From a virus, in the IMG/VR virus record IMGVR_UViG_3300045988_176929: a DNA stretch of 54,964 bases, one strand, 5' to 3'. The stretch's first letter is position 1; each line of letters opens with the position of its first letter. The notes under the pieces were generated by a model that saw nothing but the letters and a program-made list of their open reading frames with translations, made no database searches and was not told the origin of the DNA. The translations under genes were made by a program, and so were the position numbers. This document shows positions 2,868 through 54,964 of this stretch, one piece after another.

Positions 2868-3077
2868 ATGAGTAAACAGAAATTAAGGGACTTTATTTCC
2901 GATTATAAACCACTCGTTCTAATATGTGTAAATGCTGATAATGCAGAGGAGAACGAAATAAAAGTAGAGCCACATATTTCAGAAATGCAGAAAAAGTATT
3001 TGGAATGTACAGAGTGGGATGCACAGCCATTTGGTTATGGTAAGTTATATGTTGAATGTTATTTTAGGGGGTTATAA
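2868..3077 (+). CDS. Hypothetical protein
   Basis: ATG after GGAGGT RBS; 69 aa. Confidence 0.55.
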   Translation: MSKQKLRDFISDYKPLVLICVNADNAEENEIKVEPHISEMQKKYLECTEWDAQPFGYGKLYVECYFRGL

Positions 3078-3078
3078 T

Positions 3079-3237
3079 ATGGGATGGGAATATATTTATA
3101 TTTTTAATTACTTTATTTTTATCAATAATTTTAACAATTTTGGTAGTTATGTGTACATAGTAAAAAAACTCGTACTTCTAACACTTAAAAATCCTCGTAC
3201 TTCTAACATTATGGAATTTTTGTGTGAAAAAATATAA
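3079..3237 (+). CDS. Doubtful small ORF overlapping repeat copies
   Basis: ATG after GGGGGT; contains two AAA(A/T)(C)CTCGTACTTCTAAC repeats, so it may be non-coding. Confidence 0.25.
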   Translation: MGWEYIYIFNYFIFINNFNNFGSYVYIVKKLVLLTLKNPRTSNIMEFLCEKI

Positions 3238-3280
3238 AACCCAACTTTTGACTATTATAAAATCCTCGTTATACAATTTA
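3163..3280 (+). repeat. Three more copies of the AAA(T)CCTCG(T)ACTTCTAAC-type motif
   Basis: AAAAACTCGTACTTCTAAC (3166), AAAATCCTCGTACTTCTAAC (3188), AAAATCCTCGTTATACAAT (3259). Confidence 0.8.
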
Positions 3281-3338
3281 CAATTATTGTAAAATTGTTA
3301 AATTGAGAAATTTGCATGAAATTAATAAAAAGCAAAAT

Positions 3339-3352
3339 GTTTCACGTGAAAC
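3339..3352. promoter_or_regulatory. 14-bp palindrome GTTTCACGTGAAAC, copy 2 (18-bp ATGTTTCACGTGAAACAT)
   Basis: Exact. Confidence 0.9.
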
Positions 3353-3715
3353 ATAAAATAGGGAAAGTTTTAATTATAACAGAATTATTAATTTCATTAT
3401 TTAAACATAAATGTTATTAAACAAAAATATAGTTTATAATTTTTGTGTTTAATAATTATAATAAATATATAATATTATATAAATAATAATATGTGTAATA
3501 TATAAGGAATGTATGTGTATATAATATATGTGTTTTTTATGTGTGTTTATATATTATTTATTGTGATTATTAAATGCAAAAATTTTTAAAATTTAAAATA
3601 ACAACAATTATGAAATGAAAAAATTAAATAACATATGAAATAAATAATATTTGTTATTTTTATTACAAAATTAAATTTCAACAATTATTTAATTATTTTT
3701 TATGCATTTTTAACA

Positions 3716-3743
3716 TTGTGTTTTTTAAAATATTTGATATAAT
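3716..3743 (+). promoter_or_regulatory. Candidate sigma-A promoter for the island genes
   Basis: TTGTGT, 16-nt spacer, TGaTATAAT. Confidence 0.45.
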
Positions 3744-3807
3744 TGCATCGTAACAATAAATCATATGAATGTTTCGCAAATACATTTAAAAAAATTGCAT
3801 AAATGTT

Positions 3808-4431
3808 ATGTATTCATTTGAAAAACGATATTATAATGATGAAAAATTACGTTTAATTGATGCATCGCAATTGAATAATGAAAATGACGAATATATTGTA
3901 TTATTTCAACGTGACGCATTACAAAATTTTATTGATTGTTATTGCAAATTTTATTTTACAATGAATGATGCATATGATGATTATATTAAATCATTTAAAA
4001 TAATGTGTAATGTGTTTGACAAACAAATTGTTATTAATGAATTTGAAAAAATATTTTCAAAATATGACGAAGATGTAAAAATAATTAATTGCATGTATTT
4101 TGATTATTTGAATACGGGTGATTATGCATTGTTTTTTGTTGTATATGAAAAACAAATGATTAATGAAATTAATACATTTGTTGATATTTATGAAATTGAT
4201 TATGATTTTTATGATTATGAAGAAGGTGATGAATTTCATTTTAAAATTAATGATTATGCATCATATTTGTTTTTCAATAAATATAATGCAATGCAATTTT
4301 TATTTGATTATAATAATGATTATGAAAAAATTGAAATTAAATCATCATATTATCACAATTTGTCAAAATATATAAATAATCATAATAAATATGTTTCAAA
4401 ATTTGAAAATGTTTCACGTGAAACATATTAA
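3808..4431 (+). CDS. Island paralog 1: acidic N/D/Y/F/I/K-rich protein with no Pro or Trp
   Basis: A 207-aa ORF in about 15% GC DNA is highly non-random; shares two blocks with paralog 2; no SD. Confidence 0.75.
   Translation: MYSFEKRYYNDEKLRLIDASQLNNENDEYIVLFQRDALQNFIDCYCKFYFTMNDAYDDYIKSFKIMCNVFDKQIVINEFEKIFSKYDEDVKIINCMYFDYLNTGDYALFFVVYEKQMINEINTFVDIYEIDYDFYDYEEGDEFHFKINDYASYLFFNKYNAMQFLFDYNNDYEKIEIKSSYYHNLSKYINNHNKYVSKFENVSRETY
4261..4319 (+). repeat. 59-bp perfect direct repeat, copy A
   Basis: Identical to 4992..5050; encodes SYLFFNKYNAMQFLFDYNN. Confidence 0.9.
4411..4424. promoter_or_regulatory. 14-bp palindrome, copy 3
   Basis: Exact; overlaps the last codons of paralog 1. Confidence 0.9.
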
Positions 4432-4493
4432 TAACAAAATTAACAATGATTGTAACGTGAATGCAAACGTTTAATAAAAATGCATAAAATAAT

Positions 4494-5078
4494 ATGTATC
4501 ATTTTATTGATGAAAATAATTGTTATGATAAAATTAAAATTGTTGACGAAAACGAAAAAATTGATGAAATGTTTTGTAACAAAACGAATGAACAAATTGT
4601 AATTTTTAATTTTGATGCATTACAACAATTTATTGATTGTTTTTATGAAAACGAATTTCAAAAATTTTTTGATTGTGATAAAAATGATTTCATTATTGAA
4701 TTTAATGATTTTAATTTTAAATTTTGTAAAAAAATGAAAAATTATGATAAAAAACGAATCGAAAAAAAATTTTACAAAATAAAATCAATATATGATGATT
4801 GTAACGTGATTAAATGTGTATTTTTTAACAATTGTTGTCATATATCATCATATTTACATTTGCATATAATTTATTGTAAAAATGATGATAAAAATATTTT
4901 TATTGATGATTATATAATAATGTATAACGTCGATAAATTTAAAATTAAACATGATGCAAAACGAACATTCAATTCACAAAATGATGCATTATCATATTTG
5001 TTTTTCAATAAATATAATGCAATGCAATTTTTATTTGATTATAATAATGAAATTGATAAAAAACAAATTTTATATTGA
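4494..5078 (+). CDS. Island paralog 2 (no Gly, Pro or Trp)
   Basis: 194-aa ORF; DALQQFIDCFY and SYLFFNKYNAMQFLFDYNN blocks shared with paralog 1. Confidence 0.75.
   Translation: MYHFIDENNCYDKIKIVDENEKIDEMFCNKTNEQIVIFNFDALQQFIDCFYENEFQKFFDCDKNDFIIEFNDFNFKFCKKMKNYDKKRIEKKFYKIKSIYDDCNVIKCVFFNNCCHISSYLHLHIIYCKNDDKNIFIDDYIIMYNVDKFKIKHDAKRTFNSQNDALSYLFFNKYNAMQFLFDYNNEIDKKQILY
4992..5050 (+). repeat. 59-bp perfect direct repeat, copy B
   Basis: Identical to 4261..4319. Confidence 0.9.
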
Positions 5079-5163
5079 TGATTTTGATTTTTCGATTGAT
5101 TATGACACATATAAAACAATTTTCGCATGATTCACAATTCATGTAAAACAATTGTAAAATGTT

Positions 5164-5496
5164 ATGTTTGAAATGAATAATAAAAATGTAATTGTAACAC
5201 GTTATAATGATGAAATGAAACAATATTTTAAAAACATTGTTGATGATATTTATTGTGATGATGTATCATATAATACAATGTGCAACGAAAATATTGATGC
5301 ATTTTTTAAAAATAATGCATATATGCATTATGAATATACATTAATTAAAAATGATGATATTTTACATATTATTGTTTTTAATAACAATGAATTTAAAATT
5401 GTTTCATATAAAATAAATGATGATTTTGAATTTATACGTTTTAATGTTTCATATGTTTATAATGTATATGATTTATTTTCAATAATTTTTAATTAA
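5164..5496 (+). CDS. Island paralog 3 (no Gly, Pro or Trp)
   Basis: 110-aa ORF preceded by TTGTAAAATGTT directly abutting the ATG. Confidence 0.65.
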   Translation: MFEMNNKNVIVTRYNDEMKQYFKNIVDDIYCDDVSYNTMCNENIDAFFKNNAYMHYEYTLIKNDDILHIIVFNNNEFKIVSYKINDDFEFIRFNVSYVYNVYDLFSIIFN

Positions 5497-5499
5497 TAT

Positions 5500-5513
5500 G
5501 TTTCACGTGAAAC
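5500..5513. promoter_or_regulatory. 14-bp palindrome, copy 4
   Basis: Exact; 4 nt after the stop of paralog 3. Confidence 0.9.
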
Positions 5514-5568
5514 AATGTAACAAATAATAATGTTGTGTGTTCGCAAATCACAAAAATTGCAAAATATT

Positions 5569-5986
5569 ATGAAAATTAATTATGTTGTAAAAAAATTTGA
5601 ATGTATCGAAATTTACAAAAATATTGATGATTTTTTTTAAAATGCAATTTGAATGTTTATTTGATGATATTAATTGTATTTTTAATTTATCATATGATAT
5701 TAAACAAATAAAATTATCATATTGTAAAATGAAATGCGAATTGAAAAAAAATAATATTAAAAATTATGTTATTATTTGTGATTTTGAACATGAAAAATTT
5801 TATTTGATTGACAAACAAAATGACAATTTTATAACAAATAATATAACAAATAAAATGTATCAATTTAATTTTGATTTTGAAAATGTCGAAAATAATAAAT
5901 TATATGAAATTGACGATACATCAAAATTAAATATTGCAATGTATTATTTATATGAAATTTGTCATTGTAATGATGAACAAATATAA
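5569..5986 (+). CDS. Island paralog 4, interrupted by a +1 frame change in a T8 run (5631-5638)
   Basis: The ATG at 5569 has the family start motif TTGCAAAATATT but stops at 5638-5640. The long ORF (5597..5986) lies in the next frame. One T fewer would fuse them. Confidence 0.5.
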
Positions 5987-6051
5987 TTTTTAAAAATGTA
6001 AACAAAATATTAATTGTCAACAATTGCACGTTGTAAAATTGCATAAATATC

Positions 6052-6414
6052 ATGTTGAATAAAAAAATTATTGAAAAATTCAAAAATTTTGAAAATGATG
6101 TGAACGATTATGATTTATTTGAATTTTACACATTTGATGAATTTTTGAAAATATTTGAAAATGTTAATGATGAATATAAAATTTCATATTATGAAAAAAC
6201 ACAAAAATTGATAAATGAATATCATTGTAATAATGACAATACAATCGTATTATTGTATAATTGCGATGATGACGAATATTTAATAATCAATTTTGAAAAT
6301 GATAATTTGATTATTACGCAAAATATTGAAATTGAATATACAAATGATGATTTATGCAAAAATGCATTATATGAAATTTTACAATATATGTTTACAAATG
6401 AATATTATGATTGA
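6052..6414 (+). CDS. Island paralog 5 (no Gly, Pro or Trp)
   Basis: 120-aa ORF preceded by TTGCATAAATATC directly before the ATG. Confidence 0.65.
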   Translation: MLNKKIIEKFKNFENDVNDYDLFEFYTFDEFLKIFENVNDEYKISYYEKTQKLINEYHCNNDNTIVLLYNCDDDEYLIINFENDNLIITQNIEIEYTNDDLCKNALYEILQYMFTNEYYD

Positions 6415-6524
6415 TTGTTAACGAAAACAATTAAAAAAATTCGTATTACAAAATGATATTTTCAATATTTGTGTTTTTTGCATTTTACATTATTTTGTTT
6501 TATTTATTTGATTAATTAAATGAA

Positions 6525-6654
6525 TGTGATTTTTACACAAAAATTCGATTTACGAAAAAATCGTAATAAAACAAAATTCATTATACGTGTAAAAAATTCG
6601 ATATACACAATAAATATAAAATCGTCGTTTTACAAATTATGTGTAAAAATCACA
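6525..6654. repeat. 15-bp inverted repeat pair TGTGATTTTTACACA / TGTGTAAAAATCACA
   Basis: 6525-6539 and 6640-6654 are exact reverse complements. Confidence 0.85.
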
Positions 6655-6734
6655 TTTCATCGTAATACACATTATGTAAAAAATAACGTATAATTAAAAA
6701 TGCGAAATATTAAAAAATACGTGTAAAATAAAAA

Positions 6735-6797
6735 TTTACATACAATGTAAAAAATTAATGTGTAAAAAATTACATTAAAAAATACATTGTATGTAAA
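6735..6797. repeat. Nested hairpin: 15-bp inverted repeat TTTACATACAATGTA / TACATTGTATGTAAA with an inner TTAATGT/ACATTAA pair
   Basis: 6735-6749 and 6783-6797 are exact reverse complements. Confidence 0.85.
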
Positions 6798-7033
6798 ATA
6801 ATGTGTATAATAAATCATATGATAATTAATTAAATATATGTAATGATAATTACAATGTACATATTAATTGATATGATAAAACAATTATGAATACAAAACA
6901 TAATGAATTATTTATAACAACATTTGAATGTAATAATTATAATTACAAAACAACATTATAAATTATTGATTACAAATTACATTGTCAACGTCATTAAAAT
7001 AATTATTTTTATATTCGTATATATGCGTAAATT

Positions 7034-7047
7034 GTTTCACGTGAAAC
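7034..7047. promoter_or_regulatory. 14-bp palindrome, copy 5, flanked by direct repeats TATTCGTATATATGC
   Basis: Exact. Confidence 0.9.
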
Positions 7048-7167
7048 ATTGCAAAATAATTTATTCGTATATATGCATATAATAACAATTGTTTTTAAAA
7101 TCATGTGTTATTATCATGCAATTAAATAACAACATATATCATTGTTTATTTTTGTGCAATTTTTATA

Positions 7168-7195
7168 TTGCAATTATTTGTGTATGCGTTATAAT
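7168..7195 (+). promoter_or_regulatory. Candidate sigma-A promoter for paralog 6
   Basis: TTGCAA, 16-nt spacer, TATAAT. Confidence 0.45.
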
Positions 7196-7262
7196 GTAAT
7201 TACAAAATAAATAATGATTGTGTGATTCGACACAACACACGTTAATCAAATGTCAAAATGTT

Positions 7263-7553
7263 ATGATAAACAATAATATAAATGTACAAACAAAATATTT
7301 CATTACAAAAAATGATATTTACAAATTATGTGTTGAAAATGATTTTTGTACATGTTGCGACAATGAACAGTATGACGAATTATTATCATCAAATTTATTG
7401 TATGTATGTAATAATATTGATGATTTAAAACGACATTTATTAATTGTTGCAAATGATATATATAAATATTCGTGTGATACAAATATTGAAAATATATTAT
7501 ATTTATTATTTAATAAATGTGTACATACATTATTTAAAATAAATAATAAATAA
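7263..7553 (+). CDS. Island paralog 6 (no Gly, Pro or Trp)
   Basis: ATG preceded by TGTCAAAATGTT as in the other paralogs. The ORF-track start at 7218 is a TTG further upstream. Confidence 0.6.
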   Translation: MINNNINVQTKYFITKNDIYKLCVENDFCTCCDNEQYDELLSSNLLYVCNNIDDLKRHLLIVANDIYKYSCDTNIENILYLLFNKCVHTLFKINNK

Positions 7554-7584
7554 TTAAATATTTACAATTAAATAAATGTAAATT

Positions 7585-7615
7585 ATGCACGTTGAAAAAT
7601 AACGTGCATTTTTTA
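7585..7615 (+). terminator. Rho-independent terminator closing the island
   Basis: ATGCACGTT / AACGTGCAT stem, 7-nt loop, then a T6 run. Confidence 0.85.
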
Positions 7616-7670
7616 TGTTTAATTAAATAACAAATGTTATTATAACAAATGTAATTTAATCATTTTAAAA

Positions 7671-7684
7671 ATAACGATCGTTAT
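7671..7684. repeat. 14-bp perfect palindrome ATAACGATCGTTAT at the island's right boundary
   Basis: Exact; 7 nt before the first GG at 7691. Confidence 0.85.
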
Positions 7685-7851
7685 AATAACGGGTGGTTTG
7701 TTTTGTTGTGTCATTTTGAAAATAGACCGTCTAACTCCTAGAAATCCTACTTTCATATATATATAAGGCCCTCAGCTCCATTCGAGGATATGCCTGAGGA
7801 TGCGTAGGAGCCTCAAATAGACGTCTGAATGATGATCGTTGCCTATTTATT

Positions 7852-7903
7852 CATGTTCGTTTGCAACGTTCCTGTATGAGGCAAATACGACGTTGCAACA
7901 TGA
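7852..7903 (+). promoter_or_regulatory. Hairpin with conserved loop TGTATGAGGCAAATACG in the terS leader
   Basis: Stem TTGCAACGT (7861-7869) / ACGTTGCAA (7890-7898), plus outer CATGT/ACATG. Confidence 0.6.
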
Positions 7904-8030
7904 CATAAAAAATGCAAAAATAAAGCCAAAAACTAAAAAGTGAGAAAAGTGTTATAAAAATATTTCTCTAGCAGAAATTGAAAGCCTATAAGGCCCCACG
8001 TTATTACATAAAGGAAGGAGGATTAAATAA

Positions 8031-8642
8031 GTGGGAAAGGTAAATGAAAGTAAAGTTGATTATTGGTTAACTGATGATGGTTTAATTCTTGTTGAAGCAT
8101 GGGCAAGGGATGGTTACCTGTTGGATGACATTGCACAAAGGATGGGAATTGAACGACAAACATTATATACCTGGCGTAAGAAGTATCCTGAAATTGCACG
8201 AGCATTAAACACTGGGAAAGAACTTATTGATTACAAGGTAGAGAATGCATTATTAAAAGCAGCATTAGGTTATACCACAAAGGAAATTAAAGTAACATTA
8301 GGTAAGAAGATGTTAAATGGTGAAGTGTATGAAGTATTAAAAGAAACCACCACCCGGGAAATTGCCCCGAATGTTACTGCTTGTATGGCATGGTTGAATA
8401 ACAGAAAGCATGACCAGTGGAAACGTAACAGGGATAAGGTGTTAGAAATGGATGAAGAAGATTCCAACATCAATATCACCATTGTACGTGGTAATCCAAA
8501 GCAGGATAATTTAGGTGATAATGTAAATCAGGAAGTTAAATTTGAACCGAAGAAAGAGGAGCAGGTTGAAGTAAATTCCGCTGATGAAAATGATCCTGAT
8601 TATTGGCCCGATGATTGGGAGGATGAAGATGAGGATAATTAA
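8031..8642 (+). CDS. terS: Terminase small subunit
   Basis: GTG start 8 nt after AAGGAAGGAGGA; N-terminal HTH (DDIAQRMGIERQTLYTWRKKY); acidic tail; sits immediately upstream of terL. Confidence 0.75.
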   Translation: MGKVNESKVDYWLTDDGLILVEAWARDGYLLDDIAQRMGIERQTLYTWRKKYPEIARALNTGKELIDYKVENALLKAALGYTTKEIKVTLGKKMLNGEVYEVLKETTTREIAPNVTACMAWLNNRKHDQWKRNRDKVLEMDEEDSNINITIVRGNPKQDNLGDNVNQEVKFEPKKEEQVEVNSADENDPDYWPDDWEDEDEDN

Positions 8643-8882: not shown

Positions 8883-10229
8883 ATGGCAAAAGCAACAATG
8901 AATATAAGTCCTGCTTTTGACAATTTTATTTTTGATTGGGATTATGAAACATACTTAGTAATTGGTTCTTATGGTAGTGGTAAATCACATGGTATTGTAC
9001 AAAAGATAATTTTAAAATGTTTTGAGGAAAAAAGAAAAGTGTGTGTATTCCGTGATGTTTATGATACACATAAGGAATCTACATTTGACTTATTAAAACA
9101 AGTTTTGGAAGATATGGGTTTACTTGCTGATAATGGTGTGAGAAAACATCCATTTAAAGTATGTTTCAAAAATTCACCTTTGGAGTTTAAATTTCCAAAT
9201 GGTTCGAGAATAATTTTCAAAGGTATGGATAGTACTGAAAAGTTAAAATCCTTAAATGGTGTTTCTATTGTATGGATAGAAGAATGTTCAGAAGTATCAT
9301 ATGATGCTTACTTGGAATTGTTAGGTCGTATTAGAACGCCAAATAAAACAATGCACTTTATTTTAAGTTGCAATCCTGTTGGTAAGTTTAACTGGGTTTA
9401 TCAACAGTTCTTTGAAAAAATAAATGAAGATGGTACAACAAATGTTATTCTACGTGATGAGGTTTTATATGAAAGAAAGACCTTAGTAAAAAATGGGGTT
9501 TATTATCACCATTCGACTTGTGATGATAATCCATTTTTGCCTCCTGAATATATAAAACGTCTTGATGATTTAAAAACATATGATAAATCTTTATGGGTTG
9601 TTGCACGTCTTGGTAGATTTGGTGCAACAGGTATGCGTGTATTACCTCAGTTTGAAGTAATGAATACAAAAATGGTTAATCACTTTGTTAGTGAACTTGA
9701 TCCTAAATGGCATCGTGTTGGTATGGACTTTGGATTTGAAACTTCATACAATGCGGTTATTAAGGTTGCTATTGACGATAAGAATAAGTGGTTGTATATT
9801 TATAAAGAATATTACAAAAATAAAATGACTGATGATAAAACAGCTGTTGAACTTGTTAATTGGGATAGTGAAATTAAGGATCAAAGAATTAAAGCTGATA
9901 ATGCTGAACCAAAAACAATTCGTTATTTTAGAAACCAAGGTTTTCAAATGTTTCCTTGTCAAAAGAAATGTGATAAAAAATCTGAGGGTAGTAGAATTGC
10001 AAATACAAGAAAGTGTAAACGTTTCCGAAGAATTATTTGTTCCTCCGATTGTATAAATACAATTAAGGAGTTAAAGGATCTTACTTATAAAAAGAATAAG
10101 GATGGAACAATTAATTATAGTAAATTCAATATTGACCCTCATACATTTTCTGCTATATGGTATGCAATTGATGATTATAATGTAGCTGATTTAAAGGAAC
10201 GTAAAAACAATAGTATTAGAGGTAAATAA
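8883..10229 (+). CDS. terL: Terminase large subunit (PBSX/terminase_3-like)
   Basis: Walker A GSYGSGKSHG; 448 aa; C-terminal nuclease-like region. Confidence 0.9.
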   Translation: MAKATMNISPAFDNFIFDWDYETYLVIGSYGSGKSHGIVQKIILKCFEEKRKVCVFRDVYDTHKESTFDLLKQVLEDMGLLADNGVRKHPFKVCFKNSPLEFKFPNGSRIIFKGMDSTEKLKSLNGVSIVWIEECSEVSYDAYLELLGRIRTPNKTMHFILSCNPVGKFNWVYQQFFEKINEDGTTNVILRDEVLYERKTLVKNGVYYHHSTCDDNPFLPPEYIKRLDDLKTYDKSLWVVARLGRFGATGMRVLPQFEVMNTKMVNHFVSELDPKWHRVGMDFGFETSYNAVIKVAIDDKNKWLYIYKEYYKNKMTDDKTAVELVNWDSEIKDQRIKADNAEPKTIRYFRNQGFQMFPCQKKCDKKSEGSRIANTRKCKRFRRIICSSDCINTIKELKDLTYKKNKDGTINYSKFNIDPHTFSAIWYAIDDYNVADLKERKNNSIRGK

Positions 10230-36013: not shown

Positions 36014-36520
36014 ATGAAGAAAAACATTGTAGTGTTTGGTTGTGATAATACAGGCAAGACTACACTTGCACAAAAGATTGCTTTTAAATTAGGAAGTCAA
36101 TATGTAAAAAGTTTAGGACCTAATAGAACAAAGAATGAACAGTTAGATTTCATGTTTGAAAATTTAAACTCTGACGGTATAAAGGTATTTGATCGTTTCC
36201 CGATAATTGAGGAGAGTACAAGTGGTGTTGTTTTAAGAGGCCATGATAATTTCCAAACGTGGCGTGAGCAGGAAATGGATTTGCTTAGCAAAGTTGATGT
36301 TTTTATTTTCTGTAATCCTGGTTTATTTAACACATTAAATTGGGGTGAACGGGAACAACTTGTAGGTGTAAAAGATCATGCACTGGAGTTAATCAATAAG
36401 TATAATGAAATTGCAGTTCTTTTGCAGCAGTATCATCATAATGTAATTGAGTATAATTATATAATTGATCCTATTGGAAATTTTTTTATTAGTGATTTAA
36501 AAGTTAAATTGGGGGTATAA
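36014..36520 (+). CDS. P-loop NTPase (deoxynucleotide kinase-like)
   Basis: VFGCDNTGKTTLAQ Walker A; about 170 aa; ATG after GGAGG. Confidence 0.45.
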   Translation: MKKNIVVFGCDNTGKTTLAQKIAFKLGSQYVKSLGPNRTKNEQLDFMFENLNSDGIKVFDRFPIIEESTSGVVLRGHDNFQTWREQEMDLLSKVDVFIFCNPGLFNTLNWGEREQLVGVKDHALELINKYNEIAVLLQQYHHNVIEYNYIIDPIGNFFISDLKVKLGV

Positions 36521-36524
36521 CGGA

Positions 36525-37169
36525 ATGAATATTACTCATGCGGTTGAAGAAAAAATTGAAGGTGACAAGTTAGAAGCAATATTTGAAAGACAAAAAAGTT
36601 TAATGTTTAAGTACCATGATATTGAAAAGAAAAGTGGTTTACTACAAACAGAAGATTGTCCTGTTAATCTTGATGATAAAAGAGGCCAGGCAAGAATTAA
36701 GGATTTCTCATGGAGGGTAATGGAAGAAGTTGGGGAAGCACTTGATGCAAGAGAAGATGGGGACCGGGAACATTTTTGTGAAGAATTGATTGATGGTTTA
36801 CATTTTCTTACTGAATTAACAATTCTTGCAGGATATGAACCGAAAGATATTTGTTGGGAAGAACCGAATCAGATGGATATGCTTGATTACATGGTTATGA
36901 ATGTTGAGGATGTTATGGAGTGTATTAATATTAGCAATTATGTTGCAAACTTAGTAATGGATTTGGGTATGATGTGTAACTGCTTGAAGAATAAACCATG
37001 GAAGCAGACAAACATGATTACCGATAAGGAACATTTCCACAATAAACTTTGTTGTGTTTGGAATGATTACATTCATCTTTTAAGTACAGAAATGAACGCA
37101 AATGAAATTGCAATGGTTTACTTAAAGAAGTCACAGGTAAATAAGTTTAGACAGAGGTCGGGATATTGA
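36525..37169 (+). CDS. All-alpha NTP pyrophosphohydrolase (MazG / dimeric dUTPase-like)
   Basis: EEVGEALDA and EELIDGLHFL acidic helices, plus NKPWKQ. Confidence 0.5.
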   Translation: MNITHAVEEKIEGDKLEAIFERQKSLMFKYHDIEKKSGLLQTEDCPVNLDDKRGQARIKDFSWRVMEEVGEALDAREDGDREHFCEELIDGLHFLTELTILAGYEPKDICWEEPNQMDMLDYMVMNVEDVMECINISNYVANLVMDLGMMCNCLKNKPWKQTNMITDKEHFHNKLCCVWNDYIHLLSTEMNANEIAMVYLKKSQVNKFRQRSGY

Positions 37170-37930
37170 AGGTAAGGAAGTATAAAGATTTTGATGAAAT
37201 GTTTTTAAAACTTAATCAGGAAATAGTAACTAATCCTTGGGAAATGTTAGATTACTCTAACGGTATATTAGGTTACATGGATAATGTTTTTATTGCTTGT
37301 AAGAATTGGAATTGTAATTTAGATTTAGGTAAGTTTGGTTATAAAAAGAACAAATGGCCACACTTGCTTAAAACATATATTAATTATGATGAGTTACTTA
37401 AATTCCATGAAAGACTTGCAACAGCTTCTGGTTTAAGTTTGACATTTTATTTTAATCAAAAGAAAATTAACAATGGATCTTGCTTGTTAGAAATTGTTTT
37501 GTCAAGAAAGGATAGAACAAAGAAGTGGGATAAATGTAATGTTATTTACAGAACAACAGAAACACAAAGAAGAATGGCTGCTGATCTTTGTTTAATAAAT
37601 AGTTTTATAAGGGAGTTACCTGAATGTTGTGAAATTGAAAGGGTTACATTTTATATGGCTCAATCATATATTTCTGCAATGGTTATAAATGGTTACTTTG
37701 ACTATTTTGGGGTTGATATGAGTACCCTTGATAAAACACATCCTTGGATAAAGAATTTGGTTAATCAACATGACCACAATTTTGTTCCTGGGGCAAGAAT
37801 TACAACTTATCAATCAATGGCAAAGATGCAAAAGTTAGCATTAGGAATGGATGATTGTCCACCAATGTTGTGTAAGGATTTATCAATAAAAGAATTTTTT
37901 GAAAGTAGAATTAAGAAGGGAGCAAAATAA
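37166..37930 (+). CDS. Divergent thymidylate-synthase-fold protein lacking the canonical H..Y end motif
   Basis: GSCLLEIVL...CNVIYRTTETQRR...LINSFI...RVTFYMAQSYI aligns in order with the TS core PC..QF / QRS.D / N / H.Y. Confidence 0.4.
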   Translation: MKVRKYKDFDEMFLKLNQEIVTNPWEMLDYSNGILGYMDNVFIACKNWNCNLDLGKFGYKKNKWPHLLKTYINYDELLKFHERLATASGLSLTFYFNQKKINNGSCLLEIVLSRKDRTKKWDKCNVIYRTTETQRRMAADLCLINSFIRELPECCEIERVTFYMAQSYISAMVINGYFDYFGVDMSTLDKTHPWIKNLVNQHDHNFVPGARITTYQSMAKMQKLALGMDDCPPMLCKDLSIKEFFESRIKKGAK

Positions 37931-38656
37931 ATGAGAATCTATATGAACTGGGCGGAAGCATACGAGGAGATTAAAAGGGATCTTGCTGAAATGGGTATTC
38001 TTGTAAAACCTAAAACGATGCAGGATAAGGTTGTAGAAGGAAACCCTGATTATGAAACAATGGAGTTGCAGAATTATTGCTATACAATTCTTAATGCAAA
38101 ATCCAAAGATATTACTGGGGTAATTCAACCTTGGGCTGATGCAGAATTTATGGAAAGAATTTGCAATCCGTTTGCATCAAAAGAATTTACAGGCTGTCTT
38201 GATAAACCCGAATTTATTAATCCTGGGGAAGCATGGAAGTTAAGAAAAGATGTCTGGACTGAGTATATGCATGATGGTAAAATGGCTTATACTTACAATG
38301 AAAGAATCTGGCGTAATGAACAGCTTACAAAAATTATTGAAAGATTAAAGCAGGACCATGATTCAAGACAGTTATGGTTGAGTATCTGGGATCCTAATGA
38401 GGATGTTGATAAGCTAGGTGGTGTTTCCCGTGTTCCTTGTTCATTAGGTTATAATTTCCAATTCAGGGATGGTAAACTTAACATTCACTATGTTATGCGT
38501 AGCTGTGATTTCAATACACACTTTATTAATGATGTGTACTTAGGAATTAAACTTTTGGAATATGTTGCTGATAAATGTGGAATGGAAGTAGGTAATTTCA
38601 CCCATACAATGTTCTCCTTGCACGTTTATAAAAAAGACGTTGCAAATGTGTTTTAA
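37931..38656 (+). CDS. Thymidylate synthase-like pyrimidine C5 transferase (ThyA family, C-terminally short)
   Basis: DSRQLWLSIWDP...VPCSLGYNFQFRDGKLNIHYVMRSCDFNTHFINDVY...FSLHVY parallels ThyA DSRR..WN..PCH..QF..QRSCD..PFN..THLY. Confidence 0.7.
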   Translation: MRIYMNWAEAYEEIKRDLAEMGILVKPKTMQDKVVEGNPDYETMELQNYCYTILNAKSKDITGVIQPWADAEFMERICNPFASKEFTGCLDKPEFINPGEAWKLRKDVWTEYMHDGKMAYTYNERIWRNEQLTKIIERLKQDHDSRQLWLSIWDPNEDVDKLGGVSRVPCSLGYNFQFRDGKLNIHYVMRSCDFNTHFINDVYLGIKLLEYVADKCGMEVGNFTHTMFSLHVYKKDVANVF

Positions 38657-44476: not shown

Positions 44477-44669
44477 AAGATATTCTATATATAATGTTGC
44501 ACCAACTAATTTTTCAGCTATTTTTATAGAGTGTAAGCCACAACAAATATGGGGATATGTAAAGTTTGAGGATAAGGTAGATTTGATTAGGGACAATGTT
44601 AGTATGTATATTTCAATATCTGATTTTGAAGAAAATTGGGAGGTTATTGATGATGGAAAGAATGAGTAA
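44436..44669 (+). CDS. Hypothetical protein
   Basis: In-frame ATG within ORF 44385..44669. Confidence 0.4.
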   Translation: MSMRRVVKTKCRIKRYSIYNVAPTNFSAIFIECKPQQIWGYVKFEDKVDLIRDNVSMYISISDFEENWEVIDDGKNE

Positions 44670-45138
44670 GAAGGATTATTATTTAGGTATTGCATTAGCT
44701 GTTTCAAAACGATCCCCATGTTTAAGAAGACGTTATGGTTGTATCATTGTAAAGAATGATGAGATAATTGCAACTGGGTATAATGGATCCCCTAGAGGTG
44801 AGTTAAATTGTTGTGATTGCTATGAGGAATGTCCAAGAAAAGATAAGCCACATAATTCTGGGGATTATTCAGATTGCACATCAGTTCATGCTGAACAAAA
44901 TGCTATGTTATCAGCTGCAAGGAAAGATATGATTGGTGCAACAATGTATTTGGTAGCAGAAGAGGTTTATTTCAATCTTAAGGAGGTTCATTTATGGGGT
45001 AAACTTAAGGGTATAAAACCATGCCCTATTTGTGAACGTATGATAAAGAATGCAGGAATAGAAAGAATAATAACAGTAGAAGGAATTATTTGGAAAAAAA
45101 GAAATCTTGAAAAGGTGGTTAAAAATGGTTGGTTATAA
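44650..45138 (+). CDS. dCMP deaminase (ComEB-like)
   Basis: ATG after GGGAGG; VHAEQNA and PCPICERMI zinc motifs. Confidence 0.85.
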   Translation: MMERMSKKDYYLGIALAVSKRSPCLRRRYGCIIVKNDEIIATGYNGSPRGELNCCDCYEECPRKDKPHNSGDYSDCTSVHAEQNAMLSAARKDMIGATMYLVAEEVYFNLKEVHLWGKLKGIKPCPICERMIKNAGIERIITVEGIIWKKRNLEKVVKNGWL

Positions 45139-54391: not shown

Positions 54392-54883
54392 ATGAAAGTA
54401 AAGATATATACAGATGGTGCCTGTTCTGGTAATCCTGGGCCAGGAGGATGGGGCGGGATAATTAATTATCCAGGATTAAGTAAAAAGATATCAGGATTTA
54501 TGAAGAATACAACAAATAACCAAATGGAGTTACTAGCTGTTATTTCCTCGTTAGAAAAATTCTCTGATGATCTTATTCTTGAAAATGTTAAGGATTGTGA
54601 TTTCACAAAGATAGATCAAGTAGAAGTTATATCTGATAGTGCTTATGTTGTAAATGCTTTTAATCAGAAATGGTTTAAAACATGGGTTGTAAATGATTTT
54701 AAAACAAAGGATGGGAATGATGTTAAAAATAAGGAGTTATGGTTAAAGTTACTTTATCATTTAGATGTATTAGATTTCCTTGGTATTAGAGTTTCTTTTA
54801 TAAAAGTAAAAGGACATAATGGGGATCACTTTAATGAACTTGCTGATAAACTTGCTCGTAAACAAATAATTAATAATAAGTAG
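54392..54883 (+). CDS. rnhA: Ribonuclease HI
   Basis: IYTDGACSGNPGPGGWGGII...NNQMELLAVI...ISDSAYV...VKGHNGDHFNELADKLA. Confidence 0.9.
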   Translation: MKVKIYTDGACSGNPGPGGWGGIINYPGLSKKISGFMKNTTNNQMELLAVISSLEKFSDDLILENVKDCDFTKIDQVEVISDSAYVVNAFNQKWFKTWVVNDFKTKDGNDVKNKELWLKLLYHLDVLDFLGIRVSFIKVKGHNGDHFNELADKLARKQIINNK

Positions 54884-54964
54884 AGGAAAGGTGTGAGGGA
54901 TAATGAGCATATATGGCGAAAGCTTATTAACAAAAACATTTACAGATCATGTTTCAAAAAAAGC
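54846..54964. repeat. Second copy of the 119-bp terminal overlap
   Basis: Identical to 1..119. Confidence 0.95.

Follow-up and report, generated by a model that had tools for sequence, protein, structure and literature searches.

A covarying two-helix module precedes each gene of a phage island nearly free of C-pyrimidine dinucleotides and devoid of Shine-Dalgarno sequences

The IMG/VR virus record IMGVR_UViG_3300045988_176929, a stretch of 54,964 nucleotides (nt) that we analyzed whole and refer to as the window, carries a run of six small genes (A to F, with start codons at 3808, 4494, 5164, 5569, 6052, and 7263) that lack a Shine-Dalgarno (SD) sequence. We found that a module of ~35 to 45 nt lies 5' of each of these genes and that it consists of a hairpin, its loop, an A-rich spacer, and a short box complementary to the loop. 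Both of its helices covary among related phages. The six genes occupy an island from which the dinucleotides AG, CT, GG, and CC are almost entirely excluded, and the module may act there in place of the SD sequence.

The original prediction, made from the sequence alone, held that genes elsewhere in the genome have AGGAGG-like ribosome-binding sites, that the six island starts have none, and that a motif with the consensus TGYAWAAW abuts each ATG instead. The six upstream strings that it quoted are present exactly as written. Using a crude gene call and SD scoring, we found an AGGAGG-type match of 4 to 6 nt at 3 to 12 nt upstream of nearly all of the ~85 non-island genes, whereas no open reading frame (ORF) of the island, the six starts included, had a match of even 3 nt. 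The 8-mer consensus is too degenerate and did not hold up: the window contains 92 copies versus 79 ± 8 expected, and about 38 copies lie in the island, mostly away from starts, with many of these falling in TGTAAAA repeats at 6475 to 6811. A similar frequency at non-start positions of the island had been named in advance as grounds for abandoning the motif, and by that measure the 8-mer fails. Restriction to starts is a property of the extended module of ~45 nt. A profile hidden Markov model (HMM) built solely from the upstream regions of island genes in other phages gave six matches in the window (E values of 8e-8 to 2e-4), each of which ended at one of the six island ATGs, and the next best match had an E value of 0.016. 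When 2.4 Mb of fetched loci were scanned at a cutoff of E <1e-3, matches were confined to the islands of relatives, all on the + (coding) strand. The six modules of the window are as follows.

3766-3807, + strand: module A, with stem 1 at 3766-3772/3782-3788, loop TTCGCAAAT at 3773-3781, box TTGC at 3795-3798 pairing with GCAA of the loop, and a linker of 9 nt.
4454-4493, + strand: module B, with stem 1 AACGT/ACGTT at 4454-4458/4467-4471, loop GAATGCAA, box ATGC(A) at 4480-4483, and a linker of 10 nt.
5125-5163, + strand: module C, with stem 1 GCATGA/TCATGT at 5125-5130/5139-5144, loop TTCACAAT containing ACAA, and box TTGT at 5152-5155.
5533-5568, + strand: module D, with stem 1 TTGTG/CACAA at 5533-5537/5549-5553, loop TGTTCGCAAAT, box TTGC at 5557-5560, and a linker of 8 nt.
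6018-6051, + strand: module E, with stem 1 CAAC/GTTG at 6018-6021/6030-6033, loop AATTGCAC, and box TTGC(A) at 6039-6042.
7219-7262, + strand: module F, with stem 1 TGTGTG/CACACG at 7219-7224/7236-7241, loop ATTCGACACAA containing GACA, and box TGTC at 7251-7254.

The hairpin has 4 to 8 bp, the loop of 7 to 12 nt contains (U)UGCAA or a variant of it, and the box comprises 4 to 6 nt. An A-rich spacer of variable length (5 to 15 nt) separates the hairpin from the box, whereas the distance from box to AUG is kept within 7 to 10 nt; the 3' strand of the second helix thus ends where the SD:anti-SD duplex lies in the other genes of the phage. The module is in frame with an ORF in some genes and out of frame or interrupted by stop codons in others, so it is not coding sequence. 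One and the same module type can precede different genes: TTGTG...CACAA stands before gene D in the window, before a homologue of gene A in the relative L149, and before homologues of gene E in L150 and L151. Judged from these sequences, such reuse amounts to cassette-like shuffling, which is compatible with a role of the module as RNA.

The structure is best seen in a covariation set of 38 distinct upstream regions. Stem 1 is paired in all 38 modules (100%), with three to four pair types per position, and its inner arms occur in at least 11 distinct combinations, each fully complementary, including TGTG/CACA, ATGA/TCAT, ACGT/ACGT, ATTG/CAAT, CAAC/GTTG, and TTCG/CGAA; the CAAC/GTTG stem of module E, for example, has CATC/GATG as its counterpart in L153. 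The 21 G.U pairs in this stem indicate that the structured transcript is made from the + strand. In stem 2, formed by loop and box, 92% of the cells are paired and both sides change at all four pairs. Plain MAFFT alignments (A2 and A3) lost the register of the stems, and we therefore used an N-padded curated alignment together with an alignment-free permutation. In the curated alignment, changes on both sides were seen at 8 of the 8 pairs tested across the two helices, 96% of the cells were paired compared to 60% in shuffles, and the covariation score of 0.827 was reached by none of 500 shuffles (0.163 ± 0.025). In the alignment-free permutation, the duplex between a module's own loop and box averaged 4.5 bp, versus 2.75 ± 0.13 bp for cross-class combinations (maximum of 3.29 in 2,000 permutations). 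Near-identical modules also provide a compensatory series of loop and box, namely, GCAA/UUGC, ACAA/UUGU (module C, at 5164), GACA/UGUC (at 7263), and GAAA/UUUC (in L148), with GACA/UGUU in L147 as a G.U intermediate. On this comparative evidence, the module is predicted to be an H-type pseudoknot with two covarying helices.

The absence of SD sequences is a consequence of a rule that applies to the whole island, coding and noncoding DNA alike.

3266-7690, both strands: island of ~4.4 kb in which AG, CT, GG, and CC are almost absent.

On the + strand of this interval, CT and CC do not occur at all, and AG and GG occur 11 and 6 times, respectively, all but eight of these in the first 240 nt; in the 4.4-kb tally in which the observed/expected ratio of AG is 0.05, CT, GG, and CC number 3, 6, and 3, respectively. 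From 3507 on, AG or GG is found only at seven positions in gene A, where the tolerated sites encode Glu-Asp, Thr-Gly, and Glu-Glu-Gly, and at one position in gene F. The 3,143 nt from 4226 to 7368 contain no banned dinucleotide, versus ~285 expected from base composition, and the island's 1,149 noncoding nt contain none either. The GC content is 17 to 19%, compared to about 31% elsewhere in the genome. Restated, C never stands before a pyrimidine and G always follows a pyrimidine, on both strands. An SD sequence of the AGGAGG type is therefore impossible to write in the island. The same rule removes Gly, Pro, and Trp from the island proteins (0.2%, 0%, and 0%, respectively) and leaves CGT and CGA for Arg, TCA and TCG for Ser, and TTA and TTG for Leu.

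We located relatives through terL and through homologues of gene E. In L123, L141, and L146 to L153, islands of 0.9 to 4.4 kb occupy the same position, obey the same ban, and end at an element with the sequence TCCTAGAAATCCTA. In two further relatives, L124 and L154, the ban is limited to AG and CT. The island at L124:7198-8960 comprises 1,763 nt with no AG or CT and an about 2-fold enrichment of GG, and that at L154:1-1960 comprises 1,960 nt with a GC content of up to 41% and plentiful GG. Genes in these two islands are preceded, 5 to 9 nt before the ATG, by all-G SD forms, including GGGGTG in L124, GGGGG in L154, and CGGGGGGA. Such GGGGTG or GGGGG sequences can pair with CCUCC through G.U wobble. 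The pseudoknot module was found in neither of the AG/CT-only islands, and across the fetched loci the module and G-only SD sequences never share an island. The two sister islands also have good sigma-A promoters, such as TTGACG-N16-TGGTATAAT at L154:184-211.

Since the module occurs only where GG is banned as well and places a helix at the SD distance, a substitute for the SD:anti-SD duplex is the most economical reading of it. In the 5' untranslated region, the loop would pair with the box to give the H-type pseudoknot, and this preformed helix would dock on the platform of the 30S subunit instead of an SD duplex. The A/U-rich linker and the AUG would be left single stranded in the decoding site, allowing SD-independent initiation in a Firmicute-type host; in a weaker version, the module would do no more than set out a single-stranded, A/U-rich stretch on which the AUG can land. 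We put the chance that the module is an SD substitute of this kind at about even. The original prediction had proposed either SD-independent initiation or a shared site overlapping each start. This remains the best reading, given an element that lies at the SD distance, is found only where an SD sequence cannot be written, and is absent where the SD sequence is GGGGG. The A/U-rich S1-type site that had been offered as one mechanism is not retained, as the box is one strand of a covarying helix rather than a linear site.

Several observations weigh against an SD substitute. The alignment used for the formal count of pairs (A4) was curated manually and with knowledge of the proposed structure. 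Nearest-neighbor folding of the six leaders gave energies no better than those of shuffled sequences (z scores of −2.0 to +1.2), and the minimum free energy structure includes stem 1 in only two or three of the six. Helices this short and A/U-rich would need tertiary contacts or a partner. A loose hairpin-plus-box descriptor matched 20 times versus 12 ± 4 in shuffles and is thus common by chance in A/T-rich DNA, and the loop class TTGAACAT pairs less convincingly than the others. With no energy signal and a permissive descriptor, the case for the structure rests on the comparative evidence. In addition, a structure so near the AUG could equally repress translation.

Joint switching of all island genes, on or off, is what we would expect if the pseudoknot were a regulatory operator, as in the preQ1-I, SAM-II, T4 gene 32, and rpsO leaders, with either a small ligand or a protein, from phage or host, as its binding partner; initiation itself would then rely on the unstructured A/U-rich linker alone. 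A hairpin, an A-rich tail, and pairing of the 3' tail with the loop beside the start make up a layout shared with protein-bound leaders and small riboswitches that act on translation. The predicted stability is low, suggesting that a partner is needed, and a single element common to every gene resembles the operator of a regulon. We nevertheless consider an operator unlikely. A search of both strands of positions 3000 to 8100 against Rfam with cmscan returned only spurious microRNA and small nucleolar RNA matches at E values of up to 5, and at this threshold the module region did not match the preQ1-I riboswitch (RF00522). The sequences of the loop and of helix 2 vary by class within one phage, which fits poorly with one binding pocket or one protein, and the module is missing from the AG/CT-only islands despite their homologous genes, which ties it to the loss of the SD sequence rather than to gene regulation.

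A role in mRNA processing or stability, unrelated to the choice of start codon, appears less probable again. The module lies between tightly packed small cistrons of what is probably an early operon, and it could be either a 5' stabilizer against RNase J1 or RNase Y or an intercistronic cleavage site. Structures at 5' ends are known stabilizers of mRNA in Firmicutes, and stem-loops between the early cistrons of phages SP82 and SPO1 offer a parallel for cleavage. Neither function would require a fixed distance of 7 to 10 nt to the AUG alongside a variable distance to the hairpin, however, and stems of 4 to 6 bp are too short for RNase III. The element was also not found in the SD-bearing sister islands.

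It is slightly more improbable still that the module acts as DNA, be it as a promoter whose −35 region is the loop and whose −10 region is the box, as an operator, or as a mobile cassette of the T4 promoter-early stem-loop (PeSL) type that shuffles small genes. A promoter scan does call TTCACA-18-TAAAAT at 5131 to 5160, and the occurrence of one module type before different genes in different phages is PeSL-like. Yet the distance between loop and box varies from 16 to 21 nt, the putative −10 region lacks the key bases, a transcription start 7 nt past it would fall within the ORF, and promoter-like matches are at chance level (97 observed versus 80 ± 9). Compensatory changes in two helices and G.U pairs would be meaningless for duplex DNA, and cassette shuffling is no alternative, since it is compatible with an RNA role. 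We rejected a sigma-70 promoter on the grounds of spacing and covariation. In a leaderless mRNA, transcription would begin at the A of the AUG and a −10 hexamer would end ~7 nt upstream. No consistent −10 region was seen at that distance, the lone scan match (TAAAAT at 5155 to 5160) ends 3 nt before the ATG, and a conserved, structured stretch of 45 nt upstream argues for a leader.

It is scarcely credible that the island is functionless DNA decaying by hypermutation (C>T and G>A in CY and RG contexts) with chance ORFs and a compositional motif, even though such changes create stops from TGG only, TG and CA per kb equal those in the rest of the genome, and the 8-mer consensus is at chance level, because island orthologues share 50 to 98% identity with a conserved core and a confident fold, Arg, Ser, and Leu are kept as CGN, TCA or TCG, and TTR, an island copy of a domain encoded elsewhere uses the amino acid-preserving transversions AGA>CGG/CGT and TCT>TCG, the SD sequence is respelled as G5 where GG is allowed, and the 45-nt module is highly specific.

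Among described systems, the module comes closest to a start-associated sequence (SAS) of mycobacteriophages and its extended form (ESAS), which resemble it in their position before starts and in the class of gene, by analogy only. The SAS of cluster K phages is a 13-bp sequence, GGGATAGGAGCCC, located 3 to 7 bp before start codons, with or without 17-bp imperfect inverted repeats (ESAS) (PMC3203893). It is a conserved, orientation-specific repeat at many nonstructural genes of unrelated families, often with an inverted repeat upstream, and the host lacks it. Initiation of translation has been proposed as a role for this element of unknown function, although its authors favor DNA-binding proteins (Pope et al. 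2011, PMC3203893). SAS carries a canonical AGGAG SD sequence and the arms of ESAS do not covary, whereas the module described here has no SD sequence, covaries in both helices, and is linked to the ban. SAS itself contains GG, AG, and CC and cannot occur in the island. Leaders of the preQ1-I, SAM-II, rpsO/S15, and T4 gene 32 types share with the module a short hairpin, an A-rich 3' tail able to occupy the groove of the helix, and pairing of the tail end with the loop in the SD zone directly 5' of the start codon, and rpsO provides a precedent for a folded leader that docks on the 30S platform. In these leaders, however, the pseudoknot hides or flanks a genuine SD sequence and represses; the module has no SD sequence, its helix 2 varies by class, and it has no Rfam match. 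T4 PeSL elements are likewise short, conserved regulatory modules with a stem-loop; they flank small early genes that evolve fast within a hyperplastic region, and shuffling carries them from gene to gene and from phage to phage. They combine a sigma-70 early promoter with a terminator-like stem-loop and leave normal SD sequences in place, whereas the module ends at the AUG and shows cassette-like reuse without a credible promoter geometry.

Both-strand counterselection of short words is known from the avoidance of restriction sites, protospacer-adjacent motifs (PAMs), and CpG, and from the first-step-transfer DNA of T5 and the early end of T7. The island resembles such site-poor leading regions in its small, acidic, early-type genes beside the packaging site, and by analogy it may be the DNA that enters the cell first. 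Known avoidance concerns sites of 4 to 8 bp or is partial; in the island, four of the sixteen dinucleotides are almost wholly gone over 1 to 4.4 kb, noncoding DNA included. In the literature, we found no report of near-total exclusion of dinucleotides or of a pseudoknot or G5 replacing the SD sequence, and the combination of a reduced-alphabet island with translational work-arounds has no counterpart that we could find.

Firmicutes are thought to be heavily SD dependent. Should the module indeed recruit ribosomes, it would provide a compact means of initiating in these hosts without an SD sequence; nature would supply orthogonal variants of it, and compensatory mutants would put it directly to the test. 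The ban, for its part, is a constraint at the DNA level to which codon choice, signals for translation, and the amino acid makeup of proteins (no Gly, Pro, or Trp) all yield across kilobases, and it is maintained across diverged phages. Whatever reads C-pyrimidine should be an unknown player in the conflict between phage and host, with a defense nuclease, a PAM-type scanner, a modification enzyme, a deaminase, and a primase as candidates. As a simple signature in the sequence, the ban also offers a way to search for such islands and for the unannotated, probably antidefense, genes in them.

How the ban acts is best seen in a pair of paralogues. A gene in the island of L124 (8047-8295) is 50% identical to the C-terminal domain of a protein of 182 to 189 amino acids (aa) encoded to the left of the island (L124:3413-3982), a family that corresponds to positions 2279 to 2827 of the window and is encoded in ordinary DNA. 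Over 190 nt, the outside copy contains 13 AG and 7 CT versus none in the island copy, which respells conserved residues from AGA to CGG or CGT, from AAG to AAA, from CTT to TTA, and from TCT to TCG. The ban thus follows location and acts by protein-preserving avoidance, not by transition decay alone, and this pair led us to reject the ban as a property of protein families. Avoidance of 4-bp palindromes was likewise rejected, AGCT, GGCC, CCGG, and CTAG not being avoided in the rest of the genome. Among the fetched loci, the only long runs without a dinucleotide, besides ordinary CpG depletion, concern AG/CT and CC/GG and occur in this lineage. The island of L148 has ~14 exceptions in 2 kb; such tolerance indicates a strong constraint under which one site alone does not kill. 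In some wider relatives, the flank that was fetched contains no island, which makes the island an accessory module.

At the left edge, the zone of the + strand that is free of CT and CC reaches ~240 nt beyond the zone free of AG and GG (3266 to 3506), so that the ban is slightly strand asymmetric; L149, L150, and L151 have a similar left edge. Immediately left of the island, at 3161 to 3208 and 3240 to 3265, boxes resembling (A)CTCGTACTTCTAACA form direct repeats, as they do at L123:6940-7000. The left flank in L123, L146, L148, and L153 consists of 200 to 700 nt of noncoding, CT-rich, AG-poor DNA.

Genes elsewhere in the genome bear on the cause of the ban. Two tandem genes with a thymidylate synthase (TS) fold (37166-37930 and 37931-38656) adjoin genes for a MazG-like nucleoside triphosphate pyrophosphatase and a kinase-like P-loop protein, with a dCMP deaminase gene nearby (further coordinates of this gene set, 36014-37169 and 44650-45138). 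The product of 37166-37930 is unrecognizable by sequence; its structural model, with a predicted local distance difference test score (pLDDT) of 95, is closest in fold to the phage dCMP hydroxylase AfhB and to T4 dCMP hydroxymethylase. Entries for the same two enzymes are the best sequence matches of the product of 37931-38656. Phages that replace cytosine with a modified base, of the T4 hydroxymethylcytosine (hmC) or RB69 5-hydroxycytosine (5hoC) type, have such a gene set, with a TS-fold dCMP hydroxylase or hydroxymethylase, a deoxynucleoside triphosphate pyrophosphatase, and a deoxynucleoside monophosphate kinase. TS homologues of this kind make 5-hydroxy-dCMP, which is glycosylated later on the DNA (PMC13326640). 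Taken together, this gene set and precedent suggest that the phage probably carries a modified cytosine, and the ban then becomes a rule on the 3' neighbor of C.

We tentatively favor the explanation that a modification enzyme or a nuclease sensing modified C reads C-pyrimidine and that the island, which probably enters first and encodes acidic proteins of an antidefense type, is kept free of sites. A less likely cause is that the island evades a host nuclease or an NRG-type PAM, perhaps with spacer acquisition biased to the entering end, and we give about as much weight to causes outside those listed here. Context-specific deamination of exposed single strands, which we rate somewhat lower, would agree with the greater strictness of the CY ban on the + strand but is at odds with the recoding data. 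Lower still stands a desert of priming sites: primases of the DnaG type use 5'-CTN/CCN templates and make primers beginning with pppAG or pppGG, and an island that is accessory and variable in size argues against a core role in replication. Comparison of the primases themselves was uninformative (67% identity in an AG/CT-only phage and 65% in an island-free relative). The picture that we would put forward, again tentatively, is of a lineage of ~55-kb Firmicute phages with an accessory early-gene island that lacks C-pyrimidine, or in some members CT, possibly because a nuclease, a PAM reader, or an enzyme linked to modified C reads it on the first-entering DNA. The SD sequence would have been replaced by an all-G wobble SD where GG is allowed and by a ribosome-recruiting pseudoknot without rRNA pairing where GG is banned.

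The six island genes are listed here.

3808-4431, + strand: gene A, 207 aa, acidic (isoelectric point of 4.5).
4494-5078, + strand: gene B, 194 aa, a paralogue of A across the C-terminal ~30 residues.
5164-5496, + strand: gene C, 110 aa.
5569-5986, + strand: gene D, interrupted where a run of eight T residues (about 5632-5639) shifts the frame by +1.
6052-6414, + strand: gene E, 120 aa.
7263-7553, + strand: gene F, 96 aa, Cys rich.

Searches of GenBank phages with the island and its flank by megablast and blastn gave no match, searches of Pfam and PHROGs with the island proteins of the window, L124, and L154 gave nothing credible, and the homologues of the 182-aa gene to the left (2279-2827) are all unnamed. 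Gene E has 34 homologues at 50 to 98% identity; the 20 that were aligned have a conserved core in common, and Gly, Pro, and Trp are found in none of them. Its AlphaFold model is confident (pLDDT of 81) and had no fold match in the PDB or BFVD. A conserved family with a confident fold indicates that the island genes are real. In gene D, the ATG at 5569 opens just 23 codons before the T8 run shifts the frame into the ORF at 5642-5986; the orthologue in L123 is intact, and the break may be a homopolymer or assembly error, a pseudogene, or a site of slippage. Reading the island in three frames gave no support for recoding of TGA as Trp.

Three further elements mark the island and its right border.

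3338-3353, both strands: 16-bp palindrome TGTTTCACGTGAAACA, with further exact copies at 4410-4425, 5499-5514, and 7033-7048.
7585-7615, + strand: intrinsic terminator that closes the island, free of banned dinucleotides; L123 and L154 have the same element.
7733-7752, + strand: (A)CTCCTAGAAATCCTAC, an element conserved in all relatives immediately beyond the right border of the island and upstream of terS.

A copy of the palindrome with one mismatch lies at 2566 to 2581, within the 182-aa gene. The 19-mer that contains it, (A)TGTTTCACGTGAAACA(T), occurs in more than 120 unrelated viral contigs with GC contents of 27 to 70%, often in several copies and without conserved flanks; many of these contigs are phi29-like podoviruses (with the gp16 ATPase, the connector, and the phi29 major capsid protein). 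Its distribution suggests that the palindrome is probably the operator of a widespread DNA-binding protein. The right-edge element reads TCCTAGAAATCCTA(C/G) followed by TATATATA..GGCC; it borders every island and lies at 7733 to 7752 in the window, at 8976-8995 in L123, at 8969-8990 in L124, and at 2055-2072 in L154. It may be a packaging or terminus signal or a (late) regulatory signal. The ~800 nt of noncoding DNA at 6415 to 7218 contain at least 10 copies of TGTAAAA(A/T) in both orientations, especially between 6475 and 6811, and equivalent gaps are present in L147, L149, and L151. This iteron-like array could be an origin, an injection-stop signal, or an array of regulator sites.

The ends of the window are identical over 119 nt (1-119 and 54846-54964), which we attribute to assembler overlap, and the window thus represents a complete, circularly closed phage genome of ~54.8 kb with all genes on the + strand. 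terS (at 8031) and terL (at 8883) lie directly to the right of the island and a gene for a SleB-type hydrolase to its left. The replication module encodes a PolIII-alpha, a DnaG-type primase, RecA, a Cas4-like exonuclease, RuvC-like and EndoVII-like nucleases, a dCMP deaminase, and a T4 endoV-like glycosylase. The nearest isolated phages, with terL identities of at most 57%, infect Clostridium and Bacillus, and bins of gut metagenome-assembled genomes that hold close relatives are labeled Bacilli or Lachnospiraceae; these labels are not decisive for the host, which we infer to be a Firmicute. Outside 3200 to 7700, the genome strongly avoids GAATTC (1 versus 17 expected), TGATCA (0 versus 17), and TCATGA (0 versus 12), as well as GATATC and ACATGT, and CpG is depleted there (observed/expected ratio of 0.42) but enriched in the island (2.1).

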